Positions 3,592 to 61,565 of a stretch of DNA of 64,000 nt are shown here, piece by piece (positions within the stretch are counted from its first letter, which is position 1; each line of letters begins with the position of its first letter). Location of the stretch: the NCBI GenBank assembly GCA_964621395.1, contig CAZULS010000001.1, positions 135,920-199,919 of the forward strand. The letters are read 5' to 3'. The notes below the pieces were generated by a model. It was not told the DNA's origin. It saw only the letters and a program-made list of their open reading frames with translations, and searched no databases. The position numbers were made by a program, and so were the translations under genes. This DNA comes from an uncultured Candidatus Saccharibacteria bacterium (GTDB lineage: Bacteria; Patescibacteriota; Minisyncoccia; Phycocordibacterales; JACNGX01).

Positions 3592-3662
3592 GCGGGTATA
3601 GTTTAGTGGTAGAATATCTGCCTTCCAAGCAGAGGACGGGAGTTCGATTCTCCCTACCCGCA
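3592..3662 (+). tRNA. tRNA-Gly (anticodon UCC)
   Basis: GCGGGTA acceptor stem pairs with TACCCGC; D-loop AGTTTAGTGGTAGAA; anticodon stem TCTGC/GCAGA with loop CTTCCAA giving anticodon TCC; T-arm GGGAGTTCGATTCTCCC; discriminator A; no encoded CCA. Confidence 0.9.
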
Positions 3663-4308
3663 CAGCCAAAGCGAACCGCCATGAAGGGGCGGTTTTCGCT
3701 TTGAGCTGTGCGGGTAGAATGCCACACCTCATACGCATATGGAGTTTTTGGAAGTATGGAATAATGCAAGAAAGTAAAGATGTGTGGGGACAATATCTCT
3801 TGTGAGGTGTGGCATGTGGAGAATCGAACCAAACACAACTTTCACTGATTATTTTGATTGGTTAATTAAATGTTAGAGATTTTTCTTAACGAGAAGTAGC
3901 TATTTTCGGTTATAAGTGAAAGTGGTGTTCGGCGCCCAAGAGTACTTAGCGGATTGCGAATACTTGGAGCAATACGCTTAGTAACTCTGGGACGATTCTC
4001 CCTACCCGCACCACTTCGCCGAGCACCACTTCCGAAAGGAAGTGGTGCTCGGCTTCGCGGCGTCCGTCCTGCATAGCTTTAGCGACGTAGGGCAAGCACC
4101 ACCAACAGCGTGTATATCATATAATCGCGAAGTGGCCCTGCAGAGCCTCGGCGACGTGGGGCATGTAAGACTGTGAGCCGCGCCTGCCTGCCGGCAGGCA
4201 GGTCCAGCAGCACTTTATAAAATACGAGCTCTCAGGCGAAGTATTTTACTTAGTAACTCTGGGACGATTCTCCCAAAATAAAAGCCGGCTTCTGCCGGCT
4301 TCTGCCCT

Positions 4309-5124: not shown

Positions 5125-5967
5125 ATGCTTTCATTCTATAAGGGAATTGAAAATGATATCATTGCTCATCTCACAGAAGGGCCGCTTCCGGCAAAAACAC
5201 TGGTGAAAACGATTGTCGCTGAGCGAGGAGTGACCGACCAGGGCGTGTATAAGGCGCTGAAATATCTTATCGACGGAGAGGTGGTGACGAAAGAAAAGCG
5301 GTCTGTTGGTTTATCGCATGCATGGGTGGAGCGCCTTGTTGCTTTTGCTGACGATGTGGCTCGAAAATATGAAATGAGTGACATGAACGATTTTCTCCGC
5401 CTCAACGACAAAGAGAAAGTATCATATACGTTTACTGAATATTTTAAATCCGATATCCATTGGGCACATATCTTTTTTCTCCTTGCCAAGCGGACTGATG
5501 CGCCGATTTTTCTCCTTTCTCCACACAATTGGTTTATTATTGCGCGTCCGGATACCGAGTCGGTTTTGTATGATTGGGCTAATCGTTCAAAACGGCATAT
5601 GTACACGCTCACAAAAGGTAATACCGCACTTGATCGTGCTGCACAAGCTACAATTGAAAGTGATTTTGTGCACTTTTATCACGATGAAGAGATGAGCACG
5701 CCGCTCAATCGCTTTGTAACAGTTATCGGTGATTTTATTTTTGAATTCATCATTCCGGAACGCATTGCCGACACAATGGAAGAATATTATGCAACATACA
5801 CCGAGTTTAATGAGGAAAGTATCGGTGCATTCCGCGCGCTCAGCGATACAAAGTGGCCGGCAAAATTTACCGTTGAAAAAAATGCGAAAAAAGCACTTAA
5901 ACTCCGCCGGCGCATAGCCAAAGATTTTTTCATTCCGGCAGACGTAAAGGAGAAGTGGCTGACCTGA
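5125..5967 (+). CDS. Hypothetical protein, possible N-terminal winged-helix domain
   Basis: 280-aa ORF; the N-terminal approx 70 aa have a wHTH-like pattern; no catalytic motif recognised. Confidence 0.3.
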   Translation: MLSFYKGIENDIIAHLTEGPLPAKTLVKTIVAERGVTDQGVYKALKYLIDGEVVTKEKRSVGLSHAWVERLVAFADDVARKYEMSDMNDFLRLNDKEKVSYTFTEYFKSDIHWAHIFFLLAKRTDAPIFLLSPHNWFIIARPDTESVLYDWANRSKRHMYTLTKGNTALDRAAQATIESDFVHFYHDEEMSTPLNRFVTVIGDFIFEFIIPERIADTMEEYYATYTEFNEESIGAFRALSDTKWPAKFTVEKNAKKALKLRRRIAKDFFIPADVKEKWLT

Positions 5968-6034: not shown

Positions 6035-6742
6035 ATGACCAAGAACACACATAAAGAATTGATGTCCACTATCAAATCGTTGCGGACCGAGAAAGGATTC
6101 TCGCAGGAGCAGACAGCTTCTGCTATCGGCGTTTCGCGCCCGACCTATACAGCCATTGAAGCAGGTAAGCAAAAACTTGATGTTGAAGAGGCGAAAAAGC
6201 TCGCGGTGTTTTTAGGTATTGATGTTGAAGATATCGTGTATGAAGATGTGTCGAATTTGGAAAAGTATAAACACATGATTCTTGCATATCTTCGCGCAAA
6301 GGTGTCGGACGATGGAAAGGTGACAAAGACGAAACTTGCCAAACTCTTGTATCTGGCTGATTTTGCGTGGTATTACGATCACATGAAAAGTATGAGTGGT
6401 ATGCGATATCGTCGTTTACAGTATGGTCCGGTACCAGACATGTTTTTTCGCGCACTCGCGGAGCTTGAAGACAGTGGGAAGATTGTTGTGGAACGGAAAG
6501 ATATGGAGGAAAGAGAAATGTTTCTTATTAGCGAATCTGAGAGCAACAAGAACGATCCTCTTGAGAAGGTGGGAACTGATGAGGTTTCCCTTATTAAGAG
6601 CATCGCAAAAAAGTGGAAAGATAAAAAAACGCAAGATATTGTGACTTTCACACATAATCAATTGCCATATCGGATTTGTCGTGATAATGAGATTATCCCT
6701 TATGAGCTCATCACACAGGAGGATTCCGACCTGGTGTATTAG
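6035..6742 (+). CDS. Antitoxin candidate: N-terminal XRE-family HTH + C-terminal Panacea (DUF4065/SocA-like) domain
   Basis: HTH: LRTEKGFSQEQTASAIGVSRPTYTAIEAGKQKL. Panacea-like core: TKLAKLLYLADFAWYYDHMKSMSGMRYRRLQYGPVPDMFFRAL (KLLYLAD ... Y.YGPV pattern). Downstream ORF starts 4 nt after its stop. Confidence 0.55.
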   Translation: MTKNTHKELMSTIKSLRTEKGFSQEQTASAIGVSRPTYTAIEAGKQKLDVEEAKKLAVFLGIDVEDIVYEDVSNLEKYKHMILAYLRAKVSDDGKVTKTKLAKLLYLADFAWYYDHMKSMSGMRYRRLQYGPVPDMFFRALAELEDSGKIVVERKDMEEREMFLISESESNKNDPLEKVGTDEVSLIKSIAKKWKDKKTQDIVTFTHNQLPYRICRDNEIIPYELITQEDSDLVY

Positions 6743-6745
6743 GGT

Positions 6746-7150
6746 ATGCCAGGGACATGTTCTGTTACAATTGAATCTTTTGCGGAAAGTCATTATGTGA
6801 AGACGTTTGAAAAGAGGCACAAGTGGCACTGGGATGTAACTCGTCGCGCCATTATCGCCGAGCTTGAACGTATTGAAGCACTTCTTCTCACCGACAAGGC
6901 GGATTGTATTTGTGAGCAGGATGGTGTTGCCATTGTAAAAGTGGATTTCAAGGTGGCGGGAACAAAAGGGTCAGCAAAAAAGTCCGGTAACAGATGTATT
7001 GTTGCGTGGCATAAAGATAATGAAAAAGTCTCTATACTTTTGTTATACGGAAAGACAAATTTGCCAGGTAGAGGGAAAAATGAGACCGCGGTATGGAAAA
7101 AGATGGTGAGAGAGCAGTATCCCGAATATAGATATTTGCTAAAGAGCTAG
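6746..7150 (+). CDS. Toxin candidate partnered with the Panacea-domain antitoxin; weak RelE/ParE-superfamily-like C-terminus
   Basis: 134 aa; operonic with 6035..6742 (4-nt gap); C-terminal KSGNRCIVAWHKDNEKVSILLLYGK resembles the RelE/ParE beta-strand core (g.yR.iy.v ... v.il.i.h); otherwise unassigned. Confidence 0.35.
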   Translation: MPGTCSVTIESFAESHYVKTFEKRHKWHWDVTRRAIIAELERIEALLLTDKADCICEQDGVAIVKVDFKVAGTKGSAKKSGNRCIVAWHKDNEKVSILLLYGKTNLPGRGKNETAVWKKMVREQYPEYRYLLKS

Positions 7151-7282
7151 CACGCTTATTTTGCTTGCACCCGACCCGCAAATATGCTTAAATAGTGGGC
7201 ACAACGAAAGAAAGGGGATTTTGGCGTCTGGCTGGACTCTTTTTATTTTCTTTTTTATTTCTGACTTTTGATTTTCAGTCCT

Positions 7283-7372
7283 ATGGGAACTTCGTTAAAG
7301 AACAAACGCAAAAGTGTGAAGCGTCGTCGTCGCAAGAAAATGCGTCGTCAGAATCGCTTTAAGAACAAATAA
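7283..7372 (+). CDS. 29-aa highly basic peptide, possible bS22-like ribosomal protein (MGTSLKNKRKSVKRRRRKKMRRQNRFKNK)
   Basis: Not in ORF track (<60 aa). ATG 7283, TAA 7370-7372, immediately followed by terminator AAACCGCC-CTCGAG-GGCGGTTT + T-run (7375-7410). Composition and length resemble the ~30-aa actinobacterial/bacteroidete bS22. Confidence 0.35.
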   Translation: MGTSLKNKRKSVKRRRRKKMRRQNRFKNK

Positions 7373-7374
7373 CG

Positions 7375-7410
7375 CAAAACCGCCCTCGAGGCGGTTTTGC
7401 GTTATTTGTT
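7375..7410 (+). terminator. Rho-independent terminator after the basic mini-ORF
   Basis: AAACCGCCCTCGAGGCGGTTT hairpin + TTGCGTTATTTGTT. Confidence 0.6.
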
Positions 7411-7551
7411 CAGGAATATGAAAAACGAAATATGGAATATGGTGTACGGCGTAGCTTCGCTCTGTCGCACGCTCGAAACTCGAAACTTGACTCTCGAAAC
7501 TCAACGAAAAAACTCCGCGGTGCGGAGTTTTTTCGTAAGTGGGTGATGCGT

Positions 7552-7824
7552 TTATTTCACCGCATCCTTGAGGGCTTTCGCCGCACGGAACTTCGGTACG
7601 CGCTGCGCGGGAACCTGAACGGCTTCACCGGTGCGCGGATTGCGTGCCGTGCGTGCCGCACGCATCTTTGCCGAGAAGATGCCGAGACCCGCGATGGACA
7701 CTTCGTCGCCCGCCTTCAGCGTGTCAACGATTGCATCAAGCATTGCGTCTACGGCGCGTTCAGCGTCCGCTTTGGTGCTGCCGGTTTTTTCCGCAACAAC
7801 ATCAACGATAGCTGCTTTATTCAT
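7552..7824 (-). CDS. hup: HU family DNA-binding protein
   Basis: 90 aa from MNKAAIVDVVAEKTGSTKADAERAVDAMLDAIV ... GLGIFSAKMRAARTARNPRTGEAVQVPAQRVPKFRAAKALKDAV; canonical HU/IHF arm motif RNPRTGE. The track ORF 7552..7896 has a 24-aa N-terminal over-extension. Confidence 0.85.
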   Translation of the reverse strand: MNKAAIVDVVAEKTGSTKADAERAVDAMLDAIVDTLKAGDEVSIAGLGIFSAKMRAARTARNPRTGEAVQVPAQRVPKFRAAKALKDAVK

Positions 7825-8380: not shown

Positions 8381-8412
8381 AAGAAAAGCCCTTTCGGGCT
8401 TTTCTTTATCGC
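8381..8412. terminator. 19-bp-stem perfect palindrome GCGCGATAAAGAAAAGCCC-TTTC-GGGCTTTTCTTTATCGCGC, bidirectional terminator downstream of rny
   Basis: Read directly; the stop of rny (8406) is embedded in the stem flank. Confidence 0.6.
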
Positions 8413-9968
8413 GCGTACTCTATAACCTTCGTCTCTCGTATCACATGAACCTTAATTTCTCCCGGATATTTGAGCTCTGTCTCTATCTGACGAGCGATTT
8501 TTTGTGCCAAATCTTTTGCCTGCATATCAGTAATTTTCTCCGGCGACACGAAAATGCGGATTTCCCGCCCCGCTTGGAGGGCAAAACATTTCTCCACGCC
8601 TTCAAACGACAAGGTAATCTTCTCCAAATCTTCCAAACGCTTCAAATATTGCTCAATGGAATCGCGCCGTGCGCCCGGACGTCCGCCTGAAATCGCGTCA
8701 GCCGTTTGCACAATAATAGACTCAAGTGTTTCATACGGATATTCTTCATGATGCGACTGCATTGCCTTCACGATTGCCTCATCAGCACCAAATTTCTGCA
8801 AAATACGGCGACCGATTTCCACGTGGGTGCCCTGCACCTCATGATCCACCGCCTTTCCGATATCGTGGAGAAGTGCGCCTGCTTTGGCAATAGGCACGCT
8901 TGCCCCGAGTTCCTCAGCAATCATGCCGGCAATATGCGCCATTTCCACGGAATGCTGAAGCACATTCTGCCCGTAGCTGGTGCGGAAGTGTAAACGCCCC
9001 AAAATGGCAATAATGCGCGGATCAAGATTGAGAATACCGCATTCATATGCCGCCTGCTCACCCTTATCTTTAATGATTTTACTGATTTCGTCTTTTGCCT
9101 TGACGATATAATCTTCAATCTTCGCCGGCTGGATGCGTCCGTCTAGAATGAGATTTTCAAGCGCAACGCGAGCAATCTGACGGCGAACCGGATCAAAGGA
9201 AGAAATGGTAATAGCGCCGGGCGTGTCATCAACGATCACATCCACGCCGGCGGCGCGCTCGAATGCTTTGATGTTGCGTCCTTCTTTTCCGATAATCTTT
9301 CCCTTTATTTCATCCGAGGGAAGGGTAATCGTTGTGGAGGTGATATCGGCATTGGTTGCATTGGCATAGCGCTGCACCGCCGTTGTGAGGATCTCTTGTG
9401 CGCGGCGGTCGAGTTTTTCGGTATTGGCGTTTTCAAGCTTCTGAATACGCACAAGCAAATCTTCTTCATATTGCGCCTCAGCACGCTTATACAATTCCTC
9501 GCGAGCTTCCTCGGAGGAAAGATTGCCAACACGCTCCAATTCTTTTTGCTGCTCTTCTACTGATTTCTCCACTGACTCGCGAATTCCCTTCACTTCCTCG
9601 ATGCGATGTTTCACTTCTTCAATCTGCTTGTCGATATCAAGCTGACGCTTATCCAGGAAGTCTTCTTTTTTCACCAAACGCTGTTCAAGTTCTTTGGCGT
9701 CTGCCTTCTTCTCCTTCGCCTCCTTCTCAGCGTCTCTTAACACGTGCTCCGCTTTTTTCTCCGCTTCGTGTGTGATTTTTGTTGCCGCTTCTTCCGCCGA
9801 AAGACGCATGCGTTTGATCTCAAGCTCCATGCTGCCCTTTTTCCCGAGGGAGATGATGAAACGCAGGAAATACCCGAGGGCGACTCCGACGAGCACGGCG
9901 CCTCCGGCTATCAAAAACATAAAAAGAGTAAAGCTCATACCTGCATGTTCCTCCGAACACGACAACAC
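8406..9968 (-). CDS. rny: Ribonuclease Y
   Basis: 520 aa; N-terminal TM, coiled-coil, KH domain (IIGKEGRNIKAFE) and HD domain (LLHDIGKAVDHE). Confidence 0.9.
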   Translation of the reverse strand: MLSCSEEHAGMSFTLFMFLIAGGAVLVGVALGYFLRFIISLGKKGSMELEIKRMRLSAEEAATKITHEAEKKAEHVLRDAEKEAKEKKADAKELEQRLVKKEDFLDKRQLDIDKQIEEVKHRIEEVKGIRESVEKSVEEQQKELERVGNLSSEEAREELYKRAEAQYEEDLLVRIQKLENANTEKLDRRAQEILTTAVQRYANATNADITSTTITLPSDEIKGKIIGKEGRNIKAFERAAGVDVIVDDTPGAITISSFDPVRRQIARVALENLILDGRIQPAKIEDYIVKAKDEISKIIKDKGEQAAYECGILNLDPRIIAILGRLHFRTSYGQNVLQHSVEMAHIAGMIAEELGASVPIAKAGALLHDIGKAVDHEVQGTHVEIGRRILQKFGADEAIVKAMQSHHEEYPYETLESIIVQTADAISGGRPGARRDSIEQYLKRLEDLEKITLSFEGVEKCFALQAGREIRIFVSPEKITDMQAKDLAQKIARQIETELKYPGEIKVHVIRETKVIEYAR

Positions 9969-11594: not shown

Positions 11595-11636
11595 TTTTTT
11601 GTCTATTAATTTCCTAATTTTTTAATCTCCTAACCT

Positions 11637-19358: not shown

Positions 19359-20414
19359 TTATTCCGTATCACCGGATGTATTGCCTTTAAGGTGTCGAAT
19401 GGCTTCTTTCAAATCGGCGCGAGCCTCTCGTACTTCCTCGGCCGCTGCGCGAATTGCTTCTTTCACGATTGTGATGGATTCACGCGGAGTCTCTGTGGCA
19501 AGTGCATCTGCGGAGAGTGTTGCAACATCAGCAAGATATTCAGCTGCCGCCTCAAGGTGGTCGCGAGCGGCGTCAACCGATGTCTGCGCATCTGATGTAT
19601 CAATACCTTCGGACTCAAGGATGGCAATGCGCTCTAGAGTGCGGTCGGCAAGCTTCGAGAGGCGGTCGATGGCTGCATTGATACGGTCAATCAAACGAGC
19701 GATATAGGCATCGATCCGGTCTTTGGCGTTCTCTTTCAATTCCTCTTTCTTTTCTTCCCAATTCTCTTTAATTTCACCGCGTTTTTCTTCCACTTTTGCG
19801 CGTACTTCATCCAAACGATTCTTCACGTCTTCCTTCTTCTCGGCGATATGCGTGCATCGTTCTTCAACGTCTGTGCAGGTTACTTCGTCGATTTTCACAC
19901 ATTCATTTGTGTGTGCGGCATCTGTTGTGGTTGTGGTGTCTTCGGAAAGCTCTTCACATTTTGCTTTGAGCTTCTCTTTTACTTCTTCACAAGTGGTGGT
20001 ATCGGAACACGCGGCAATAATCCAACGAGGGATTTCTGAGAGATGGTCATGAGCTTTTGTCTTGATGGCCTCAATACGGTCGGCATGTGATTCTTTTACG
20101 TCTTGCATGCGTTCTTTTGCCGCCTCAACGGCATTGTGCATGTGTTCGCGGTGGTTCTTTACTGCTTCTATCGGACGTACTTTTTGTACAGATGGAGTTC
20201 CATCGGGCTTTCCCGCATTTCCCGGAGTGTGTCCTCTCCCTGTCGACGGAACAGAGCCGTCTTCGGTAGAGATTGGCATGACCTGAGCCTGATCGGCATG
20301 TGTTTTTACAGCTCTGTTGGGTGCTCCGGCGGCATCGGTGGGTGGATATACCGCATGCGCGGTTGGCGCCACAAGAAGCGCGGCGAGTGTAAGTGTGATG
20401 AATGTATGTTTCAT
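19359..20414 (-). CDS. Secreted coiled-coil protein with Cys-containing segment (hypothetical)
   Basis: 351 aa; signal peptide MKHTFITLTLAALLVAPTAHA; long E/K-rich heptad-like region. Confidence 0.4.
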   Translation of the reverse strand: MKHTFITLTLAALLVAPTAHAVYPPTDAAGAPNRAVKTHADQAQVMPISTEDGSVPSTGRGHTPGNAGKPDGTPSVQKVRPIEAVKNHREHMHNAVEAAKERMQDVKESHADRIEAIKTKAHDHLSEIPRWIIAACSDTTTCEEVKEKLKAKCEELSEDTTTTTDAAHTNECVKIDEVTCTDVEERCTHIAEKKEDVKNRLDEVRAKVEEKRGEIKENWEEKKEELKENAKDRIDAYIARLIDRINAAIDRLSKLADRTLERIAILESEGIDTSDAQTSVDAARDHLEAAAEYLADVATLSADALATETPRESITIVKEAIRAAAEEVREARADLKEAIRHLKGNTSGDTE

Positions 20415-23583: not shown

Positions 23584-23870
23584 AATAGTAAGTGTTAGGA
23601 GATTAATGATTAGGAGACTAAAAGAATGCAATCTCTTATTTTTAATATTTAATTTCCTAATGGCTAATCTCCTTTTATTAAAAATACCGGTGCACAAAGC
23701 ATCGGTCATCGTGAATACAGTATATCGCATGCAAGAGAAAAGTCAAGCGAGATGTTCCCTCGCCTTCATTTGTCTATAACGAAATACGTATCATGCCGAG
23801 GTTATATGTTTTTATACACACGCATAACCGATATTTCAGGTGTGTGTCTGATATACTATATATGAATACA

Positions 23871-25845: not shown

Positions 25846-26046
25846 CATTACGAATAACGAATAACGCGAATATACGAATACACAATCATACCATTCTTGA
25901 CTCACGTATATGTCTGTCGCTATACGCTGTACCGAAACACCACAAAGAAACAATATTGACGCTACATGTTAATCGTAAGTCCGAAGCAGAGAAGCGACCC
26001 ATTCGTATATTCGCATCATATTCGTAATTCGTAATTGTTCGTAACT
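25846..26046. mobile_element. Family-B ACGAAT-rich MITE (approx 200 bp), copy 1; TIR ATTACGAATAACGAATAACGCGAATATACGAATACACAAT ... ATTCGTATATTCGCATCATATTCGTAATTCGTAAT
   Basis: Four near-identical copies occupy every spacer of the pilus cluster; diverged or composite copies at 45279-45446, 53449-53645, 54254-54420, 56216-56322, 61812-61858. Confidence 0.75.
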
Positions 26047-27376: not shown

Positions 27377-27566
27377 ATTACGAATGACGAATAACGCGAA
27401 TATACGAATACACAATCGTACCATTCTTGGCTTACGTATATGTCTGTTACTATACGTTGTACCGAAACACCATAAAGAAATATTATTAGTGCTAAATGCT
27501 AATCGTAAGCCCGAAGCAGAAAGAATACCCTTTCGTAGATTCGTATCATATTCGTAATTCGTAATA
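27377..27566. mobile_element. Family-B MITE, copy 2
   Basis: Starts 1 nt after the pilC stop; the right TIR ends 16 nt before the next ORF. Confidence 0.75.
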
Positions 27567-29366: not shown

Positions 29367-29557
29367 AATTACGAATGACAAATAACGCGAATATACGAAT
29401 ACACAATCGTACCGATAGAAGTTCTTATATTCGTATTATCACAATCTATTGTAATGGGAGATCACAAAGAATATATACGTGTCATATGATAAACGTAAGC
29501 CCGAAGCAGAAAGAACACCCATTCGTAGATTCGTATTATATTCGTAATTCGTAATAT
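29367..29557. mobile_element. Family-B MITE, copy 3
   Basis: As above. Confidence 0.75.
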
Positions 29558-37108: not shown

Positions 37109-37298
37109 GGGAATAGAATTAAGAATGAAGAGTTACGAATTAAGAATATATACAGTGTAGGGGAAAAACGGGGGTGGTGCAATATATCAGGAGATTAAAA
37201 GTTAGGAAATTAAAAGTTAAACAAAATTATTTTCCACTTTCTGTATCCTAAAAGCTCAAAGCTATAAGCTATAAGCTCGGCATGCTATACTTCTCCCT

Positions 37299-45935: not shown

Positions 45936-46406
45936 ATGCGTCATCCGATCAAAAAACGTCCAGAACCGCAGCCTGATTACCGCTACAATTCGGTAAAGGT
46001 AACGAAGTTCATCAATATGCTTATGCGGGGCGGAAAGAAGAGCGTGGCTGAGCGCGTGGTATACGATGCCTTTGATTCCATCAAAAAGCGCGATGAGAAT
46101 GCAAATCCGCTTGAAGTCTTTGAAGCAGCGATTAAGAATGTCGGCCCTTCCATGGAAGTGCGCTCACGTCGTGTGGGTGGTGCCAATTATCAGGTGCCGC
46201 GTCCGGTACAGCCGAATCGTCGCTTGGCTCTGACATTCCGTTGGATTCTCGAAATTGCCCGTAAGAAAAGTGGTAAAGCGATGTCTGAGCGTTTGGCAGA
46301 CGAACTCCTTGCGGCAGCGAAAGGCGAAGGCGATGCAATCGCAAAACGCGACAACATGCACAAGATGGCAGAAGCTAATAAGGCATTTGCTCACTTTGCA
46401 AACTAA
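45936..46406 (+). CDS. rpsG: 30S ribosomal protein uS7
   Basis: [39 protein letters not shown] ...; start moved to MRHP. Confidence 0.95.
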
Positions 46407-46433
46407 CGATAAACGATAAACTCATAAACGATA

Positions 46434-46466
46434 AAAAAGCGCGGGCTAACGCCCGCGCTTTTTTGT
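46434..46466 (+). terminator. Terminator after rpsG (AAAAAAGCGCGGGC-TAAC-GCCCGCGCTTTTTT), preceded by three ACGATAAAC motifs
   Basis: Read directly; it implies rpsG and fusA are transcriptionally uncoupled here. Confidence 0.6.
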
Positions 46467-49518: not shown

Positions 49519-49619
49519 AAAGAGGAGATTAGGAGATTAAAGATTAAAAAATTAAAAAAACTATAAACGGTAAACGATACACTAAAAGTCGCCCTGACGG
49601 GCGACTTTTAGTTTGCTTA

Positions 49620-51100: not shown

Positions 51101-51453
51101 GTTTTCTTTTTGGTGAGAAAAAATATGGTTTCAAATAAAATAACTGCTCGTTTCAGTCTATCATACCATATGTAATATGTCAATACCAGCACCCGCTCCT
51201 TTTTCCTATCCTATAAGCCATAAGCTAAAAGCTATAAGCTCAATTGCGCTTGCGCAAATTCGGCGGCTCTGGTAGGATAGTGGCACCGCATGGCGGGCTT
51301 GTTTTTTCTTGTATGTATTTTTTTGTTTCTAAAAAGCAGAAAAGTATATCATCCAAGTCCATCACGCATTTTATTTATTATCAGGTATAGCTGTTTCTTT
51401 TCGGGCAATGCTCTCGCTTCGAGAAGGAACAGGTATCCAATTCATTCAAACGT

Positions 51454-52647
51454 ATGGCTGATACATTTGATCGCAGCAAGCCGCATGTGAATGTGGGTAC
51501 CCTCGGTCACGTTGACCACGGGAAGACCACATTGACTGCCGGCATCTTGAATGCCCTCGACCTCGCAGGACAGAAGGTCCGCAAAGAGGATGTGAGCGCA
51601 ATCGACAACGCGCCGGAAGAGCGCGAACGTGGTATTACCATTTCGCTCCACCACAGCGAATACGAAACAGAAGCACGTCACTACGCGCACATCGATGCGC
51701 CGGGACACGCCGACTACATTAAAAACATGATCACCGGTGCCGCACAGATGGACGGTGCAATCCTTGTGGTTGCAGCAACCGATGGTGTGATGCCGCAAAC
51801 TCGTGAGCACGTACTCCTTGCAAAGCAGGTGGGCCTTACTCACATGATCGTCTTCATCAACAAGGTAGACATGGTTGATGATGCTGATTTGGTTGAGCTC
51901 GTGGAAGAAGAAATCCGCGAAGTGCTTACCCAGCAGGGCTTTGATGGTGCAAACGCGCCGGTTATCAAGGGCTCCGGCCTTAAAGCAGCGGAAGCAACAT
52001 CTGTTGACGATGAATACGTACAGAAGATTCTTGAGCTCATGAATGCTCTTGATACGTACATTCCGCTTCCGGAACGTCAGACTGACAAGCCGTTCCTTAT
52101 GCCGATTGAGGACATCTTCTCAATTGAAGGACGTGGTACTGTCTGCACCGGTCGTATTGAACGCGGACAGATCAAGGTCGGAGAAGAGGTTGAAATCGTG
52201 GGTATTAAAGATACCGTAAAGACAACCGTGACCGGTATTGAGATGTTTAACAAATCGCTTGAGCAGGGCGAAGCCGGCGACAACGCGGGAATTCTCCTTC
52301 GCGGTACCAAAAAAGAAGATATTCACCGCGGTCAGGTGCTTGCTGCACCGGCAAGTGTTACCCCGCACACCGAATTCGAAGCGGAGGTATACATTCTTAA
52401 GAAAGAGGAAGGTGGTCGTCACACTCCGTTCTTCTCCGGATACAAGCCGCAGTTCTATGTCGGTACAACGGATGTGACCGGCGACGTGACTCTGGCAGAA
52501 GGCGTTGAAATGGTGATGCCGGGCGATACCGTTACCTTCAAAGTGAAGCTTGTAGCACCTGTTGCTCTTGAAGATCAGCAGCGCTTCGCAATCCGCGAAG
52601 GCGGTAAGACCGTTGGTGCCGGTGTGGTAACCAAGGTTATTGCCTAG
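51454..52647 (+). CDS. tuf: Elongation factor Tu
   Basis: 397 aa; [22 protein letters not shown] motifs. Confidence 0.95.
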
Positions 52648-52689
52648 AGCTTGATTACGATTCCCACCGCAAGGTAGGAAGAGTAGAAG

Positions 52690-52812
52690 CTTGTCGGCTG
52701 ACACGTTCGTATGCCGGCTGCAAATCGCTCAAAGCGTCTTGAAGTACGACAGTACTCCCGCGACACTTTTCACGATTTTCGCTCGACATACGGACGTGTC
52801 ACGCACGACATG
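52690..52812. repeat. Partial family-C MITE copy (internal region, no TIRs) downstream of tuf
   Basis: CTTGTCGGCTGACACGTTCGTATGCCGGCTGCAAATCGCTCAAAGCGTCTTGAAGTACGACAGTACTCCCGCG ... aligns with the interior of 17903-18090. Confidence 0.55.
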
Positions 52813-52926
52813 TTAATCGTAACCAAGCTCACAATTCATGTTTGCGTCGCGGTGGAAATCGTGACCAAACTTATTCTCCGGACACCCCTTCTCGAAAGGT
52901 AGGGGCACGTCCGCCCGCTCTGTTCT

Positions 52927-53277
52927 ATGACAGCAACCGAAACACAAAAGAAGAAACGTTCTGAAACGAGCGCGCCGAAACTTCGTATCAAAGTGCGTGC
53001 GTATGAGAACAAAGTGCTTGATGCATCGGTAAAGCAGATTATCGACACGGCGATTCGCTATGATGCGGATATTGCCGGACCGACACCCTTGCCGACATCG
53101 ACAAAGAAGTACACCGTCAATCGCTCCACGTTCGTTCACAAAGACGCGCGAGAGCAGTTCGAAATGCGAGTGCATAAGCGTTTGATCGATATCCTCAATC
53201 CGACCCCTAAGGTCGTTGAGGCATTGACCAATCTCTCACTCCCTTCGGGCGTCAGCGTGGATGTACGCATGATGTAA
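52927..53277 (+). CDS. rpsJ: 30S ribosomal protein uS10 (with short N-terminal extension)
   Basis: LRIKVRAYENKVLDASVKQIIDTA ... GPTPLPT ... conserved uS10. Confidence 0.9.
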   Translation: MTATETQKKKRSETSAPKLRIKVRAYENKVLDASVKQIIDTAIRYDADIAGPTPLPTSTKKYTVNRSTFVHKDAREQFEMRVHKRLIDILNPTPKVVEALTNLSLPSGVSVDVRMM

Positions 53278-53448
53278 TTGAGCAGTATTGCTCGGGTTCG
53301 CGCATTCAATTTGCCCAGCGAAGTGAATGCGCTCTACCCGATCAATGCAAGAAGCGGCGACGGCGGCGCGCAAAGCGCCCCGCCGCAACAACGCGAATCA
53401 TGACATGAATAGATATGTCACGAGCCGCATGTTTTTTGTATTGCATAA

Positions 53449-53645
53449 GGGTACGAACTACGAACATATACGAACATACGGAGACAGTGTCTCGCGACAT
53501 AATATAATTATATCGTCATTCCGCACTTGATGCGGAATCTAGGAGACTCTGTATCTGGATTCCTGGTCAAGCCAGGAATGACAGCAAAAGAGAGTTTCCT
53601 GCTGAAAGTCAGATTCGTATGTTCGTACAAATTCGTAGTTCGTAA
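53449..53645. mobile_element. Composite family-B variant enclosing family-A hairpins, between rpsJ and the inserted minus-strand ORF
   Basis: GGGTACGAACTACGAACATATACGAACATACGGAG ... GTCATTCCGCACTTGATGCGGAATC ... CCAGGAATGACA ... GATTCGTATGTTCGTACAAATTCGTAGTTCGTAAC. Confidence 0.6.
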
Positions 53646-53710
53646 CAGTTCATAACACAAAAAAACCGCACAGCGGCATATGACGAATCATATACATGTG
53701 CGGTCGGGTT

Positions 53711-54037
53711 TCAGAGACCTGTCTCCCTTTTTGCTTTTTTGCCCCACGGCCAAAGAAAGCCGTGAAATCCATAAAAGCCAAAGTCCACAAGCGCCGCAAT
53801 GAGTCCAATGGGACCCGAGAAGAGACGAATAAATTCAGATGCTTCCCACCATAAATTATTCTCTTTCTTGACTGTTTCCACGGCTTTTTTCAAACGATTG
53901 TCATTTGGAAAAGAAGAAGTTAAGTCATCAAGAAAAGTTTTTCTTCTTACAGAACTTGCAAAAGAGAATCCTGCTCCCAATACACCACAGGCCAGCCATA
54001 GTAAGAGGAGAAGTATCGAAAACAATGTTATATTCAT
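53711..54037 (-). CDS. Hypothetical small membrane protein inserted antisense between rpsJ and rplC
   Basis: 108-aa ORF; N-terminal TM/signal (ITLFSILLLLLWLACGVLGAGF) and C-terminal hydrophobic segment. Confidence 0.35.
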   Translation of the reverse strand: MNITLFSILLLLLWLACGVLGAGFSFASSVRRKTFLDDLTSSFPNDNRLKKAVETVKKENNLWWEASEFIRLFSGPIGLIAALVDFGFYGFHGFLWPWGKKAKRETGL

Positions 54038-54253
54038 CGGAGTAAATTTTTTGTGTTCAAAAGTTCAAAAAACGCCAAGCTAATTCTAACAGTAATATAT
54101 TTCCTATTTAGAGTCAAACATATTTTTTGTCTCTCATCCCAAATTACCCAATTCCTATTTTCTACCGTGACCGAGCATGACTTGTCATGCTGTAGGCACT
54201 CCTAGTTTCCAATCCACCCAGTTGACTTTTCAAATCAAAAAAGGTAGTATCTG

Positions 54254-54420
54254 GAAACGTATAATTCCGAATTACGAATGCACGCGAATATACGAATGAG
54301 TGAAATAGCGGATGTGCCTTCGAAGTATCCTCGGAACATATATAACAATAAGAAGAGAAATATAAAAATGCACGATATATTGAGTATTCGTATATTCGTA
54401 ATAAATTCGTAATTCGTAAC
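54254..54420. mobile_element. Family-B MITE variant directly upstream of rplC (right TIR ends 3 nt before the ATG)
   Basis: ATTACGAATGCACGCGAATATACGAATGAG ... GTATTCGTATATTCGTAATAAATTCGTAATTCGTAAC. Confidence 0.65.
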
Positions 54421-54423
54421 TTT

Positions 54424-55035
54424 ATGAAATTCATCCTCGGCACAAAAGAAGAGATGACACAGATTTTCCAGGAAGATGGACGTGTCGTACCGGTAACAGC
54501 AATCGCTGCCGGTCCTGTTGTGGTGACACAAGTGAAGAATGCTGATACCGATGGATACAGTGCTGTGCAGGTTGGCTTTGGTACACAGAAAGAATCTCGC
54601 TTGGGCAAGTCTGTTCTTGGGCACACCAAAGATCTTGGTGCATTTAAAACACTTCGCGAATTCCGCCTGGAGGATACGGCAGACATGGAAAAAGGGAAGA
54701 CTATCGACGTGTCTATCTTTGAGCCGGGTGAGGAAATCGAAGTGAGCGGAATTTCGAAAGGAAAAGGTTTCCAAGGTGTGGTGAAGCGTCATGGCTTCAA
54801 AGGCGGTCCTCGTTCACACGGTCAGAAGCACTCTGAGCGTAAGCCGGGTTCTATCGGATCAACCGGTCCGCAGCGCGTGCTCAAAGGCTTGCGCATGGCA
54901 GGACGCATGGGTTCGGATCGCGTAACGGTGAAGAATCTTTCAGTGGTTGCCGTCGACGCGGAAAAAGGGCTCCTCTTTGTGAAAGGTGCCGTTCCCGGAC
55001 GTCGCGGCACATTGCTCGAAGTCCGCACCGCCTAA
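54424..55035 (+). CDS. rplC: 50S ribosomal protein uL3
   Basis: Conserved uL3 N-terminus and KGKGFQGVVKRHGF motif. Confidence 0.95.
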   Translation: MKFILGTKEEMTQIFQEDGRVVPVTAIAAGPVVVTQVKNADTDGYSAVQVGFGTQKESRLGKSVLGHTKDLGAFKTLREFRLEDTADMEKGKTIDVSIFEPGEEIEVSGISKGKGFQGVVKRHGFKGGPRSHGQKHSERKPGSIGSTGPQRVLKGLRMAGRMGSDRVTVKNLSVVAVDAEKGLLFVKGAVPGRRGTLLEVRTA

Positions 55036-55089
55036 GAGCGCACGGAGTGCGCGTTAATCTCCTAACCTTTAACTTCCTAATCTCCTAAT

Positions 55090-55758
55090 ATGGAATCACC
55101 CATCTACAACGAACAAGGAAAAGAAACAGGCAAGCTCACACTTCCTAAGGAAATCTTTGGTTTGCCGAAAAATGACGACCTCGTGCACCAGGTGGTTGTA
55201 TCGATGCAGTCAAATGCACGCACCAATGTGGCGCATGCAAAAGACAGAAGCGAAGTACGAGGCGGTGGTCGCAAGCCCTGGAAGCAGAAGGGTACCGGTC
55301 GTGCGCGTCATGGTTCGCGCCGTTCACCGATTTGGATTGGTGGTGGCGTTACCCACGGACCTTCCAATGAAAAGAATTTCGATAAGAAAATCAATCGCAA
55401 GATGGCACGCAAGGCGCTCCATACGGTGCTTTCCGGTAAGATGAAAGACGGTGAGGTGATGTTTGTTGACATCTTCTCCACTGAAGAGCCGAAAGCTTCA
55501 TGGGCAAAGGGTGTTCTTCAAGCACTCGGAAGCGTGAAAGGATATGAGGCGATTGCGGAGCGCAAGAACAATGCCGTGCTCATTGCCGTGGGCGAGAAAA
55601 ACGATGCAGTATTCAAGAGCTTTGGAAACTTCGGCAACGTTGCCATCATGGAAGCACGCAATGTAAATCCTGTGGAAGCTCTTTCATACAAGCACATCGT
55701 ATTTGTGGGCCCCGAGGTATGTGTTGCACACCTTACTCGTGAAAAAGGAAATGAATAA
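55090..55758 (+). CDS. rplD: 50S ribosomal protein uL4
   Basis: RGGGRKPWKQKGTGRARHGS signature; TAATCTCCTAA tandem motif directly upstream. Confidence 0.9.
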   Translation: MESPIYNEQGKETGKLTLPKEIFGLPKNDDLVHQVVVSMQSNARTNVAHAKDRSEVRGGGRKPWKQKGTGRARHGSRRSPIWIGGGVTHGPSNEKNFDKKINRKMARKALHTVLSGKMKDGEVMFVDIFSTEEPKASWAKGVLQALGSVKGYEAIAERKNNAVLIAVGEKNDAVFKSFGNFGNVAIMEARNVNPVEALSYKHIVFVGPEVCVAHLTREKGNE

Positions 55759-55776
55759 TTCAGATTCTCGTTAACT

Positions 55777-56211
55777 ATGAGCATTCTCTCTTCCAAAACA
55801 AAAGAGTCTCAGTCGAAAAAGACGACCGACCAAGGGTCTAAGGCAAAAGCTCCGGCAAAGCCGAAAGCAAAAGCTGCATCAAAGAGTGCGCAGCCCAAGC
55901 CTAAGTCACAGAAAGCTGCGACCGCTCCCAAGAAAGGTGCATATGCACACGTGCTTCTTGCACCGCGTATTACAGAGAAGGCAGCTCTTTCAAGCGAACG
56001 TGGCGCGTATGTCTTTACGGTTGCACCAGAGGCGACAAAGGTTGATGTGAAGAAGGCGTTTTTCCAGGTATACGGTATTCTGCCGAGAAAAATCACCATG
56101 ACCCGCATCCCGAAGAAGAACACGTTCATTCGCGGAAGAAAGGGTACGAAAGGTGGTGGTAAGAAAGCGGTTGTATATCTTCCCGAAGGACAGAAGATTG
56201 AAATTGTGTAA
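55777..56211 (+). CDS. rplW: 50S ribosomal protein uL23 with approx 50-aa K/A-rich N-terminal extension
   Basis: The C-terminal 90 aa match uL23 (LLAPRITEKA ... VDVKKAFFQVYGI ...). Confidence 0.85.
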   Translation: MSILSSKTKESQSKKTTDQGSKAKAPAKPKAKAASKSAQPKPKSQKAATAPKKGAYAHVLLAPRITEKAALSSERGAYVFTVAPEATKVDVKKAFFQVYGILPRKITMTRIPKKNTFIRGRKGTKGGGKKAVVYLPEGQKIEIV

Positions 56212-56215
56212 ATCA

Positions 56216-56322
56216 TCGAATTACAAATGAAATACGAATATACGAATTACAAATATATGTGTTAATGATAATAAAGAGCATGATTTGTAATTTGTATATT
56301 TGTATCAATTCGTAATTTGTTT
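56216..56322. mobile_element. Miniature family-B derivative (ACGAAT/ACAAAT-rich, approx 107 bp) between rplW and rplB
   Basis: CGAATTACAAATGAAATACGAATATACGAATTACAAATA ... TATTTGTATCAATTCGTAATTTG. Confidence 0.5.
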
Positions 56323-56328
56323 ATAGCC

Positions 56329-57168
56329 ATGAAAAAATATAAGCCGACAACAGCATCTCGCAGACACATGAGCACGGTGACCTACCGAGGCGTGCTTTCC
56401 GGCGACAAGCCACACAAACCGCTTGTGAAAGGAAAGAAGCGTTCTGTTGGTCGTAACAATGCCGGACGTATCACCACTCGTCATAAGGGAGGCGGTCACA
56501 AGCGTTTGCAGCGTGATATCGATTTTACATACGATAAGAAAAACATTATCGCGCGCGTGGAGACGATTGAATACGATCCAAACCGCTCAGGTTTCATTGC
56601 TCTCGTGTGTTATCGTGATGGTGAACGTCGCTATATCCTTGCTCCGCAGAGTGTTGTGGTGGGAGATGAATTCGTGGTATCCGAAGAGGCGGAAGTGAAG
56701 GTGGGAAATCGCATGCCCCTTGGTAAGATTCCTGCCGGTACGTTTGTATATAATGTTGAATTAAAGCCGGGTGCCGGCGCACGCTTGGCACGCTCCGCCG
56801 GATCATTCCTTGAAGTGGTTGCAAACGACGAAGGCTACACCCAGGTGAAGATGCCGTCGGGAGAAATTCGCAAGATTATCGCCACCGCATGGGCGTCAAT
56901 CGGTGAAGTATCCAATCAAGAGCACAAGCTTGTGACTATTGGAAAAGCGGGTCGTAGCCGCTGGATGGGTAAGCGCCCGACGGTGCGTGGTACGGCCATG
57001 AACCCTGTTGATCACCCCCATGGTGGTGGTGAAGGACGCCAAGGACGCGGACGCCGTCGCGCAACCTCTAAATGGGGTAAGGAGACCGGAAAGGGACACA
57101 AGACACGTCGTGCAAAGAAATATTCAAACAATCTCATCGTTTCTCGCAGAAAGAGCAAAAAGAAGTAA
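56329..57168 (+). CDS. rplB: 50S ribosomal protein uL2
   Basis: MKKYKPTTASRRHMS ... GGGEGRQGRGRRRA conserved uL2; start moved 4 codons into the track ORF. Confidence 0.95.
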   Translation: MKKYKPTTASRRHMSTVTYRGVLSGDKPHKPLVKGKKRSVGRNNAGRITTRHKGGGHKRLQRDIDFTYDKKNIIARVETIEYDPNRSGFIALVCYRDGERRYILAPQSVVVGDEFVVSEEAEVKVGNRMPLGKIPAGTFVYNVELKPGAGARLARSAGSFLEVVANDEGYTQVKMPSGEIRKIIATAWASIGEVSNQEHKLVTIGKAGRSRWMGKRPTVRGTAMNPVDHPHGGGEGRQGRGRRRATSKWGKETGKGHKTRRAKKYSNNLIVSRRKSKKK

Positions 57169-57204
57169 AAAAACGATAAACGATAAACTTTTCAACGATA
57201 AAAC

Positions 57205-57243
57205 AAAAAGCCGCGCAGCTCTCAAAGGATGCGCGGCTTTTGC
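57205..57243 (+). terminator. Terminator after rplB (AAAAAGCCGCGCAGC-TCTCAAAGGA-TGCGCGGCTTTTGCC), preceded by ACGATAAAC motifs
   Basis: Read directly. Confidence 0.55.
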
Positions 57244-57332
57244 CCCCCCTCACACTTTTTCCTCAAAATATGTTATATTGGGAAACACTCATTTTTAATT
57301 TCCTAATATTTAACTTCTAATCTCCTACCACA

Positions 57333-58436
57333 ATGACCGACGACCCTTCCCCTAGTGCACGCTTCATGTTCGCCCTCTATGGCGGGCTTATTGTTCTTTT
57401 TGGCATTCTCTTCTCTGTTGATACCAACATCGCCCTTGTTGCACTTCTCGTGCTGTTTTCGGGACTTTTTTCCGGTCTTACCATTGGTATTCTCGGGCTT
57501 TCTCCCGAAGATCTCAAAATTGAAGCCGATTTGGGCTCGCGCTTGGCAAAGAAGATTCTTCCGGTGCGGCAGAAGGGGAATCTCATTCTCTCCACATTGC
57601 TCGTCTCCAATGTTATCGTCAACTCCGTTCTCTCTATTTTTCTTTCCGACGTCGCTTCAGGTGTTATCGGCGGTATTATCGCCATTGCGCTCATTACCGT
57701 CTTCGGTGAAATTTTGCCGCAATCAATCGCAATCAAGCATGGTCTTAAAATGGGATATATGTCGCTGCCGCTTTTGTATGTGGTGATGACCGTGCTGTAT
57801 CCGATTACTCGCCCTGTGGCATGGGCGCTCGACAAAGCAATCGGTAAGGAATTGCCGGCAATCTATTCCAAGCGCAAACTCTCAAAGATTCTTGAGCACG
57901 TGGAGGACCAGGGAATTATCGATGAAGATGAAGAACAGATTCTTCTCGGCGGCGTGTCGTTTTCGGAGAAATATGTTGGCGATGTAATGACACCAATCGA
58001 CAAGGTCTTTCTCTTGCCCGACACCACACTTCTTTCGGGAGAAAAACTTCGGGAAATATATGAAAGCGGACACTCACGTATCCCTATCTACGATGAAAAT
58101 ATTCACGATATTGTCGGTATGTTGTATGTGAAGAAGCTTATTGCCATTAATCCCGACGACAATACACCGGTTGTAGATGTGATGAGTGACGATGTGCCCA
58201 AGGTGATGGCGAGCGAGCATCTCGATGCGGTTTTGAATAAGTTTAAGCTCAAAAAGAAGCACCTGTTTGCGGTGTATGCCACCGATTCCGACGCCGCCGG
58301 CATCATCACGCTCGAAGACATTATGGAAGAAATCCTCCAAGACGAGATTGTAGACGAGACGGATTTTAAGGAACGAGTTGAGAGTAAAAGAGGGAAGAGT
58401 CGAGAGCGTGGTTATTCGAGTACAGTGAAGAAATAG
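57333..58436 (+). CDS. CNNM/CorC-family transporter (DUF21 transmembrane domain + CBS pair), inserted between rplB and rpsS
   Basis: 367 aa; four N-terminal TM helices (DUF21), then CBS pair (DVMTPIDKVFLL ... IVGMLYVKKL ... AGIITLEDIMEEIL); TAATCTCCTAC motif upstream. Confidence 0.8.
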   Translation: MTDDPSPSARFMFALYGGLIVLFGILFSVDTNIALVALLVLFSGLFSGLTIGILGLSPEDLKIEADLGSRLAKKILPVRQKGNLILSTLLVSNVIVNSVLSIFLSDVASGVIGGIIAIALITVFGEILPQSIAIKHGLKMGYMSLPLLYVVMTVLYPITRPVAWALDKAIGKELPAIYSKRKLSKILEHVEDQGIIDEDEEQILLGGVSFSEKYVGDVMTPIDKVFLLPDTTLLSGEKLREIYESGHSRIPIYDENIHDIVGMLYVKKLIAINPDDNTPVVDVMSDDVPKVMASEHLDAVLNKFKLKKKHLFAVYATDSDAAGIITLEDIMEEILQDEIVDETDFKERVESKRGKSRERGYSSTVKK

Positions 58437-58547
58437 ACAAGTTTCGAGTATCGAGTATCGAGTTGCGAGAGTCGCGCGCTACCGCGCGCGACGATACAAA
58501 CTAAAAAACTCAAAAGCGCGACTTACGCCGCGCTTTTGGAATTGTAC

Positions 58548-58576
58548 TTGACACAAAATCCATATCGTGATAGCAT
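58548..58576 (+). promoter_or_regulatory. Near-consensus sigma70-type promoter TTGACA-N17-TAGCAT
   Basis: TTGACAcaaaatccatatcgtgaTAGCAT read directly, downstream of two terminator hairpins and approx 70 nt upstream of the 58647 mini-ORF and rpsS. Confidence 0.5.
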
Positions 58577-58646
58577 ACTATGCGTAGTGGTTATTTTGTA
58601 AAAGACGATCAAAATCGTTTATTCTATAAAAAGAAAACGAAAGAAA

Positions 58647-58856
58647 ATGAAAAACAGCGCTTTTGTGATCTGGATGATAGGGTACCCCATGTATCATATC
58701 CTCGCTGACTATCTCCATTTTCTTATGGAGAAGCCCATCGAAGATCCGACGAATTGGGGACTTGTCATTATTTTTGCATTTTGGGTTTTTGTCGGCTGGT
58801 TGGTTTATGAGCCGAAAGAAAGCAAGAAAGTCGAAAATAAAGAAAATGAGGACTGA
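58647..58856 (+). CDS. Hypothetical small membrane protein
   Basis: 69-aa ORF with two hydrophobic helices. Confidence 0.3.
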   Translation: MKNSAFVIWMIGYPMYHILADYLHFLMEKPIEDPTNWGLVIIFAFWVFVGWLVYEPKESKKVENKENED

Positions 58857-59086
58857 CCTGTTCTGTTTATCTTTATCCCAAAAAGCTGCCTTCCGGGGCA
58901 GCTTTTTATGTGGAATTGGTTTTTGTGTTTCGCGCGGCGTGATTCTTCATTCATAATTCTTAATTCTCAGCCGCGAATGGTTCTCTGCCGTGCTCGCACG
59001 GCAGAGAACCATTCGCGGCTGTTGACTTCTCCCCGGCTATCTGCTAGGATACTGCAACGAGTGTGTGCTCGACTTTTGTTTTATAT

Positions 59087-59425
59087 ATGACACGATCGCT
59101 GAAGAAAGGTCCGTATGTGGACGAAAAATTGCTCAAGAAAATCGCCGGAAAGAAGCCGGCGGATGTTGGCGTGATTACAACATGGGCACGCGCAAGCCAA
59201 ATTTCTCCGGAAATGGTAGGTTTCAAGTTTGGTGTGCACAATGGCCGTAAACACATTGAGGTGTTGATATCCGAAGACATGGTAGGACATCGTTTGGGTG
59301 AATTCTCCCCGACAAAGACCTTCCATCGTCACGGTGGTAAGATGCAGAAAGAGCTTGAGCAGAAGAAGAAAGAAGCGGAAATCGCTGCAGCAAAAGCCGC
59401 TAAGGCCGCTGCCGACAGTAAGTAG
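59087..59425 (+). CDS. rpsS: 30S ribosomal protein uS19 with K/A-rich C-terminal extension; stop codon TAG is the first triplet of a family-D MITE
   Basis: [19 protein letters not shown] ... [17 protein letters not shown] conserved; the track ORF starts 8 codons upstream. Confidence 0.9.
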
Positions 59426-59620
59426 AACCTGTCTCACTGAAAAATATATGATAACCACAACTCTTCATTCATAAGCTGCGCTTGGCAGCTCTCGCACCCA
59501 CATTGCGGCTGTGCCTCGTCTCTCAACCTCACCGTACGACAGTACGCTTCGGTCTCCGAGACGTCGGCTCACTCGCAATGTGGGCACGAGAACAAGCCAT
59601 TTTCGGTGAGAAAGGTTCTA
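59423..59620. mobile_element. Family-D MITE between rpsS and rplV (TAGAACCTGTCTCACTGAAAAA ... CATTTTCGGTGAGAAAGGTTCTA)
   Basis: Internal sequence homologous to 23871-24069; the 5' TAG doubles as the rpsS stop. Confidence 0.7.
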
Positions 59621-59639
59621 ACACATTATCACGACTATT

Positions 59640-60110: not shown

Positions 60111-60170
60111 AGAGCCACGTAGCGGCGACCCTTAATCTCCTAATTTCCTAACTTACTAATCTCCTAACAT

Positions 60171-60872: not shown

Positions 60873-60884
60873 CCCCAAATCATT

Positions 60885-61310: not shown

Positions 61311-61349
61311 ACTTGCAATTTCCTTATCGAAAGGTATACTTCCAAAATT

Positions 61350-61556: not shown

Positions 61557-61565
61557 TATTTTCAT

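Follow-up and report, generated by a model that had tools for sequence, protein, structure and literature searches.

To our knowledge, the ribosomal protein bS22 has so far been described only from actinobacterial, Bacteroidota and Borrelia ribosomes. It has been published as a basic helix of roughly 30 residues (PMC7797042, PMC10618245, PMC13000457), and a 2026 paper reports it in Mycobacteria and Bacteroidia (PMC13000457). The protein of Flavobacterium johnsoniae has 30 residues and a pI of 12.7 (PMC7797042), and that of Borrelia burgdorferi, which was also unannotated, escaped standard mass spectrometry and was discovered only via a translated search, is 61% Lys/Arg (PMC10618245). In solved ribosomes the basic helix of bS22 is buried close by the decoding centre, between h44 and h45 of 16S rRNA (along with h2 and h27), and its C-terminus touches H68/H70 of 23S rRNA (PMC7797042, PMC10618245, PMC12123416). 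In Mycobacterium smegmatis, which does not require the gene, K16 of bS22 contacts h44 and shapes the aminoglycoside pocket (PMC10081302). The F. johnsoniae protein is lost from isolated 30S subunits and present in 70S complexes (PMC13000457). A literature search returned no paper linking bS22 with Patescibacteria, the sole co-occurrence being in an unrelated gut-microbiota paper.

Two types of bS22 serve as reference here: the Bacteroidota/Borrelia type, represented by F. johnsoniae Fjoh_1533 (7JIL), Porphyromonas gingivalis (9I5V) and B. burgdorferi bb0822 (8FMW), and the actinobacterial type, represented by M. smegmatis MSMEG_0945 and M. tuberculosis Rv0550B (NF047430; PF08213), together with mitochondrial mS38. 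Against these we set a 29-codon ORF (hereafter the mini-ORF, and its product the CPR peptide) that, judged by its sequence, is probably the monocistronic bS22 gene (orthologue) of a Paceibacteria (CPR/Patescibacteria) bacterium.

The mini-ORF and its conservation in relatives

The mini-ORF lies in a 64,000-nt stretch of DNA, the whole of which is referred to as the window. Start, stop and translation were confirmed in the sequence exactly where the original prediction had placed them:

7283..7372, + strand: mini-ORF of 29 codons encoding the bS22-like basic peptide MGTSLKNKRKSVKRRRRKKMRRQNRFKNK; ATG at 7283, TAA at 7370-7372

By translation, 16/29 residues of the peptide are Lys or Arg (55%). 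In ~1.35 Mb of related DNA, 17 ORFs have a length of 24-42 aa and a K+R content of 50% or more, among them a second one inside the window (19736-19810). Considered alone, without conservation, the mini-ORF is not beyond chance; as K/R-rich ORFs are not rare, the case for it depends on conservation.

Six-frame scans of 80 RNase Y loci yielded three genomes with the mini-ORF (L001, L003 and L015), and a metagenome scan, in which 313 stretches matched and 4 were confirmed, added L081-L084. The spread of the family is probably underestimated by the metagenome scan, because the tblastn confirmation is harsh on low-complexity peptides. A syntenic ORF of the same length, 29 codons, is thus present in seven related contigs, making eight copies with the window. 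The peptides are 83-100% identical to that of the window, with only positions 5, 14, 20, 23 and 26 variable across copies, at a nucleotide identity of 72-92%. Codon differences from the window are predominantly synonymous:

L082: 7 codons differ, 7 synonymous
L081: 8 codons differ, 8 synonymous
L001: 6 codons differ, 5 synonymous
L003: 15 codons differ, 14 synonymous
L015: 20 codons differ, 15 synonymous

Codon position 3 holds 23 of the 37 variable sites, and synonymous sites are near saturation (pS 0.64-0.82) versus a pN of 0.03-0.16. The flanks, 90 nt on each side, are unalignable, with identity at random level; the conserved segment has its 5' edge precisely at the ATG and its 3' edge at the stop. 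The predominance of synonymous change, together with the unalignable flanks, indicates selection on the encoded peptide and therefore a protein-coding gene. On this pattern of substitution the mini-ORF is evidently under purifying selection at the protein level, being neither an sRNA nor a chance ORF, and we hold it to be almost certainly a real protein-coding gene. The relatives present the opposite of a frame that is lost while its nucleotides are kept, the outcome that had been named as counting against the prediction: frame and peptide are conserved and the nucleotides drift. Conservation of the ORF together with its terminator, proposed as a check, was found as well, with the ORF in eight contigs and the terminator in 7/8 copies. 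The earlier argument that a promoter-ORF-terminator unit is unlikely to be noise holds for the self-contained unit and its conserved coding gene.

Two other candidate frames were rejected. A TTG start at 7268 (34 aa) is missing in relatives, where conservation begins at ATG 7283. A short ORF 3' of the terminator (ATG 7418, MKNEI...) is interrupted in relatives, which have TGA versus TGG in the window, and in L081 it has no ATG.

Genomic neighbourhood

The following features surround the mini-ORF in the window:

3592-3663: tRNA-Gly(UCC), the conserved upstream neighbour of the mini-ORF
5125-5967: gene for a 280-aa protein, function unassigned, upstream of the antitoxin-domain pair
6035-6742, + strand: HTH_3 plus SocA/Panacea antitoxin-domain gene (domain match)
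6746-7150, + strand: 134-aa ORF with no family match, after a 3-nt gap from the preceding gene
7552-7824, - strand: HU gene, convergent with the mini-ORF and with its own terminator
8406-9968, - strand: RNase Y gene, beyond HU

The order tRNA-Gly(UCC), mini-ORF, then HU and RNase Y in the opposite orientation, is conserved at the locus and is the ancestral order; in L001, L003 and L015 the mini-ORF likewise lies 3' of HU and is convergent with it. The interval between the tRNA and the mini-ORF varies. In the window (3592-3663 to 7160) it measures ~3.6 kb and includes five ORFs, and in L001 (12400-13940) it contains one gene. In L003 (11200-11420) and L015 (3372-3580) the tRNA is the immediate upstream neighbour, at ~140-150 nt. 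The interval looks like a tRNA-adjacent insertion hotspot. The genes at 6035-6742 and 6746-7150 are probably a toxin-antitoxin pair. A homologue of the 280-aa gene lies directly 5' of the mini-ORF promoter in L001, which identifies the 6035-7150 pair as an insertion in the window's genome.

For the RNase Y of the window, identity is 79% with the protein of a Candidatus Yonathbacteria MAG and 63-72% with the proteins of many further Paceibacteria/Parcubacteria MAGs, which places the window in a Yonathbacteria-like genome of the Paceibacteria (CPR/Patescibacteria). HU follows RNase Y at 64 loci, of which 58 lack a comparable small basic ORF immediately past HU; the other six comprise three with the mini-ORF and three with unrelated K/R-rich ORFs. 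A looser search for diverged copies 3' of HU in the 64 Paceibacteria loci found none outside the close clade. At the HU/RNase Y locus the mini-ORF is confined to a narrow Yonathbacteria-like clade.

EF-Tu and the main ribosomal-protein cluster are located at 51454-63456, and the mini-ORF is outside this cluster; the 16S rRNA gene is absent from the window. The genes of the cluster are separated by unusually long spacers with repeat arrays, and a gene for a CNNM/CBS-domain membrane protein (57333-58436, + strand) lies within it, after uL2 (56317-57168) and before uL22 (59640-60110).

Promoter, leader and terminator

The putative signals around the mini-ORF are:

7165..7170, + strand: -35-like hexamer TTGCAC, overlapping a TTGCTT at 7161-7166; read from the sequence, with putative promoter function
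7185..7193, + strand: extended -10 element TGCTTAAAT, a conserved block with a 17-nt spacer from the -35
7200..7282, + strand: predicted 5' leader of ~83 nt, U-rich, with its start placed from the position of the -10
7363..7411, + strand: intrinsic terminator, a 22-bp inverted repeat with a 5-nt loop (folding)

The layout TTGCnn-17-TGCTT(A/T)AAT recurs 5' of the ORF in L001, L003, L081, L082 and L083, where the -35 reads TTGCAT, TTGCAA or TTGCG, 17 nt from the -10. Within otherwise unalignable upstream DNA, the window, L001, L081, L082 and L083 all carry the block ATATGCTTAAATA unchanged, and the L003 version is TGCTTTAAT; the promoter is thus conserved in 6/8 copies. A promoter had been proposed at 7170-7200; it is present and recurs in relatives, with its coordinates slightly shifted (7165-7193). 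Its weak -35 caused a consensus promoter scanner to overlook it. The leader is poorly conserved; that of the window and of L082 exceeds that of L001, L081 and L083 by ~45 nt. No SD-like motif was found in the leader before the ATG of the mini-ORF.

The arms of the terminator (7363-7384 and 7390-7411) form a perfect inverted repeat, of which the 3' arm ends TTATTTGTT, and the stem takes in the stop codon of the mini-ORF and the three codons before it. The core hairpin (7372-7402) has a folding energy of -22.5 kcal/mol (z = -6.3 versus dinucleotide shuffles), so that the rho-independent terminator of the original prediction is real and stronger than had been stated. It looks bidirectional, with a symmetric A-tract/U-tract design. 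A simple terminator scanner missed the hairpin because the T-run is partly within the stem. Equivalent hairpins with different stem sequences are present in L001, L081, L082 and L083, which points to compensatory changes; in L015 the hairpin is ~32 nt further on, and in L003 no hairpin was found close to the mini-ORF. Overall, the terminator is conserved in 7/8 copies. The region 7195-7545 folds better than shuffles (z = -5.8), mainly via two terminator hairpins. A search of 7100-7600 against Rfam at permissive thresholds found no family at gathering score, only sub-threshold terminator-like hairpins.

Downstream of the terminator lie period-7 arrays (7413-7442 and 7472-7502), to which the stretch AGGAATATGAAAAACGAAATATG(G/A)AATA belongs. 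In L001 and L081-L083 its conservation exceeds that of the terminator stem and that of the 5' leader; it contains no conserved ORF and has no Rfam match.

Translation signals and repeats elsewhere in the window

Only 4/38 long ORFs of the window have an SD-like motif upstream, and a TATAAT-like hexamer (at least 5/6 matches) ends 0-12 nt before the start in 16/38, with a peak at 5-9 nt; starts were taken as the first start codon of each ORF, and these counts are approximate. Examples of starts in the 38-ORF set are:

2954 and 15028, - strand
30429, 33019, 34119, 37299, 42543 and 44658

As TATAAT-like hexamers lie this close to start codons, many mRNAs in the window may be leaderless.

Arrays of the 8-mer TAATYTCC are found directly 5' of the start codons of ClpP (array 11607-11633, gene start 11637), uL4 (55055-55089, 55090), the CNNM/CBS gene (57296-57328, 57333) and uS3 (60133-60167, 60171), with further sites at 23595-23660, 37187-37212, 49529-49539 and 63490-63500. 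The pattern TAATCTCCTAA, allowing at most one mismatch, has 16 matches versus 0.87 expected. In sense, the CUCC core of TAATYTCC corresponds to the anti-Shine-Dalgarno sequence and not to SD, and the arrays may be an unusual translation-initiation or leader signal. In addition, ~30 intergenic period-7 tandem arrays occur beyond those 3' of the mini-ORF (e.g., 26020-26036, 27550-27565, 29521-29557, 46405-46435 and 51211-51240), with varying units such as GGAATAT, CTCGAAA, ATTCGTA, AACGATA, CTATAAG and CTAAAAG.

Similarity to bS22

The CPR peptide was compared with verified bS22 sequences, taken from the supplement of the Borrelia paper (PMC10618245) and from PDB chains 7JIL, 9I5V and 8FMW. The Borrelia sequence of that supplement (…THKKRKKRRKNRHKKKNK) differs slightly from 8FMW chain V (…THKRKKKRRKNRHKK), and both versions were used, with the same conclusions. 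The same supplement prints the M. smegmatis bS22 sequence as F. johnsoniae bL38.

The CPR peptide aligns without gaps from Met1 to all verified bS22, with scores 2.9-5.2 sd above shuffles that keep composition and Met1; for the F. johnsoniae, Borrelia and M. smegmatis proteins the range is 3.3-5.2 sd. Identities across the Bacteroidota/Borrelia type are 11-15/29: 13/29 with F. johnsoniae, 13/29 (PDB chain) or 11/29 (supplement sequence) with Borrelia, and 15/29 between the L015 variant and Borrelia. With the actinobacterial type only 7-10/29 residues are identical (8/29 for M. smegmatis), and the gapless score is 3.0-3.7 sd above shuffles. Five columns are invariant in the five structure-verified bS22 (M1, K6, K16, K19 and R25); at these columns the CPR peptide reads M, K, R, K and R (4/5 identical, with K replaced by R at 16). 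Column 12, the one consistently hydrophobic column of bS22 (V/M/I), is V in the CPR peptide, and M1, K6, K19, R25 and V12 are invariant in all eight CPR copies.

The CPR peptide shares with the Bacteroidota/Borrelia type K6, K8, hydrophobic 12, the basic block 16-19, R22 and the motif N24-R25-(H/F)26-K27, which matches the NRHK of that type; both have more than 50% Lys/Arg, at 29 aa for the CPR peptide versus 30-31 aa, and both are encoded by stand-alone tiny genes that are often missed by annotation. They differ at the N-terminus (MGTS in CPR versus MP(S/N/C)G), at position 20, which is hydrophobic (M/L) in CPR and basic in the Bacteroidota/Borrelia type, and in the T14-H15 pair, which is absent from the CPR peptide. 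The C-terminal KNK of the CPR peptide is shorter than the KKKK tail of F. johnsoniae, which is thought to contact the 50S subunit. The host phylum also differs. With the actinobacterial type the CPR peptide has in common the MG(S/T) start, K6, R9-K10, hydrophobic positions 12 and 20, K19, R22 and R25, and it is four residues shorter at the C-terminus. The peptide thus mixes the types, combining MG(S/T) and hydrophobic 20 of Actinobacteria with V12 and NR(H/F)K of Bacteroidota and Borrelia. It is closer to either type (z = 2.9-5.2 versus the Bacteroidota/Borrelia type, 3.0-3.7 versus the actinobacterial type) than the types are to one another (z = 1.0-3.1). It is conceivable, although we consider it doubtful, that the CPR peptide stands in sequence between two bS22 types for which structure has until now been the only link.

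Profile comparison gave a similar picture. In hhalign, the CPR family aligned with the verified-bS22 alignment over columns 1-28 at 92% probability (P = 8e-7), and 0/300 column shuffles reached the score of 27.8 (shuffled 11.6 +/- 2.2, maximum 23.8). An HMM built from four verified bS22 only, used without composition correction, was run on 41,341 small ORFs taken from 81 CPR sequences, and the four mini-ORFs had the highest domain scores. With the HMMER composition correction on, only the L015 variant is marginally significant (E = 0.025) and the window peptide falls to 7.4 bits; this drop is the main statistical weakness of the bS22 case. The resemblance to bS22 named in the original prediction is positional and extends beyond composition; the proposed likeness to the mycobacterial protein is borne out, and the Flavobacterium/Borrelia type is resembled more strongly.

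Searches with curated models gave no match. The window peptide, the L015 variant and the TTG-extended form had no match at E <= 10 to NCBIfam NF047430 (ribo_bS22, an equivalog with a cut-off of 34 bits), nor did the CPR peptide at E <= 10 to Pfam PF08213 (COX24_C; mS38 / AURKAIP1 / DUF1713, gathering threshold 23 bits), whereas the positive control, M. smegmatis bS22, scored 62.6 and 46.2 bits, respectively. Neither model matches the verified bS22 of F. johnsoniae and B. burgdorferi; the curated models thus cover the actinobacterial/mitochondrial type only, and the non-match of the CPR peptide says little. Against PDB sequences, phmmer and hmmsearch found no bS22 chain, only a chance 12-residue match to bS18. 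An exact look-up in a collection of 15 billion proteins found neither the peptide nor its variants, and three known bS22 (including that of M. smegmatis) were equally absent, so that the collection is uninformative for proteins this short. In ribosome structures bS22 is a single, slightly bent alpha-helix behind a short extended N-terminus. AlphaFold2 predicts for the 34-aa TTG-start form a single helix at residues 5-27 (mean pLDDT 86), which accords with bS22 but is non-discriminating, as any K/R-rich peptide may come out helical in prediction; Foldseek with this model found no match, as expected of a single helix.

Other tiny basic proteins, namely eL41 (eukaryotic/archaeal), bL37, bTHX, bL34 and bL36, share the size class, basicity and helical character of the CPR peptide, and show no positional similarity above composition (z -0.05 to 1.5); for eL41, bTHX, bL34 and bL36 this presupposes that the comparator sequences used are correct.

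Alternative explanations

Similarity between short K/R-rich helices can be convergent. The coding constraint on the mini-ORF is equally compatible with a conserved small basic protein outside the ribosome, which could bind nucleic acids in free form, as an RNA chaperone or as a nucleoid- or protamine-like factor beside HU, or could be a cationic peptide that is secreted or penetrates cells in the episymbiotic lifestyle; the lack of a match to curated bS22 models, the convergent position beside HU and the narrow distribution at the HU/RNase Y locus would also fit such a protein, and convergence of bS22 with its eukaryotic counterparts mS38/eL41 has been suggested (PMC12123416). We consider a non-ribosomal protein unlikely, however, given that the similarity to bS22 is positional, gapless, full-length and above composition, that it includes landmarks other than K/R (V12, N24 and H/F26), and that the other tiny basic proteins give no match above composition. 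In addition, the CPR peptide has no signal peptide or hydrophobic segment, and its convergent orientation implies that it is not co-transcribed with HU.

Explanations at the RNA level fare worse. An sRNA or cis-acting RNA element with an incidental ORF would accord with the short transcript and its strong terminator, with the missing Shine-Dalgarno sequence and with the folding of 7195-7545; it is very improbable in view of the concentration of variation at codon position 3, the higher identity of the peptide than of the nucleotides, the bounding of conservation by ATG and stop with an unconserved leader, and the lack of any Rfam family at threshold, and since SD motifs are rare genome-wide, their absence here is uninformative. 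More improbable still is a role in transcription attenuation, in which the mini-ORF would act as a leader peptide or upstream ORF controlling a gene further 3', as might be suggested by a short ORF with a terminator hairpin directly 3' and overlapping the stop: no + strand gene lies downstream, HU (7552-7824) being convergent and having its own terminator, no alternative anti-terminator pairing is evident, and leader peptides are not normally kept residue by residue at synonymous saturation.

Proposed role and implications

As a bS22 gene, the mini-ORF would be transcribed from its own extended -10 promoter into a short, monocistronic transcript that would end at the strong hairpin overlapping the stop codon. 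In the product, a short extended stretch at the N-terminus (MGTS) would lead into a single alpha-helix. Incorporation into the ribosome, binding site and function are extrapolated from solved bS22: by this analogy, the CPR peptide would lie near the decoding centre, in the h44/h45 pocket of 16S rRNA (with h2 and h27), and would extend its basic C-terminus towards H68/H70 of 23S rRNA as an extra intersubunit contact; its role would be rRNA stabilisation and bridge formation. This would add a new phylum to the range of bS22, and the peptide would be of modest further value as a candidate link between the two types.

Patescibacteria have small genomes and smaller ribosomes (PMC12641178); an extra small-subunit protein by the decoding centre would, if the assignment is true, alter the inventory of the CPR ribosome. 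bS22 is adjacent to the site that binds aminoglycosides, and in M. smegmatis it alters susceptibility to these drugs (PMC10081302). More generally, the case illustrates that ribosomal protein genes of 29 codons escape current family models and large protein collections. If the CPR peptide is bS22, the protein would have been retained in an organism with a reduced ribosome, apparently almost no SD use and many leaderless-looking mRNAs, and this retention would fit the still-speculative link of bS22/mS38 to SD-independent initiation (PMC12123416, PMC10081302). A bridging sequence would help to decide whether mycobacterial and Bacteroidota/Borrelia bS22 have a common ancestry; should the CPR peptide indeed be intermediate between them, bS22 would form a single family of ancient origin that spans at least four bacterial phyla and has systematically escaped annotation, which would count against convergent, lineage-specific additions.
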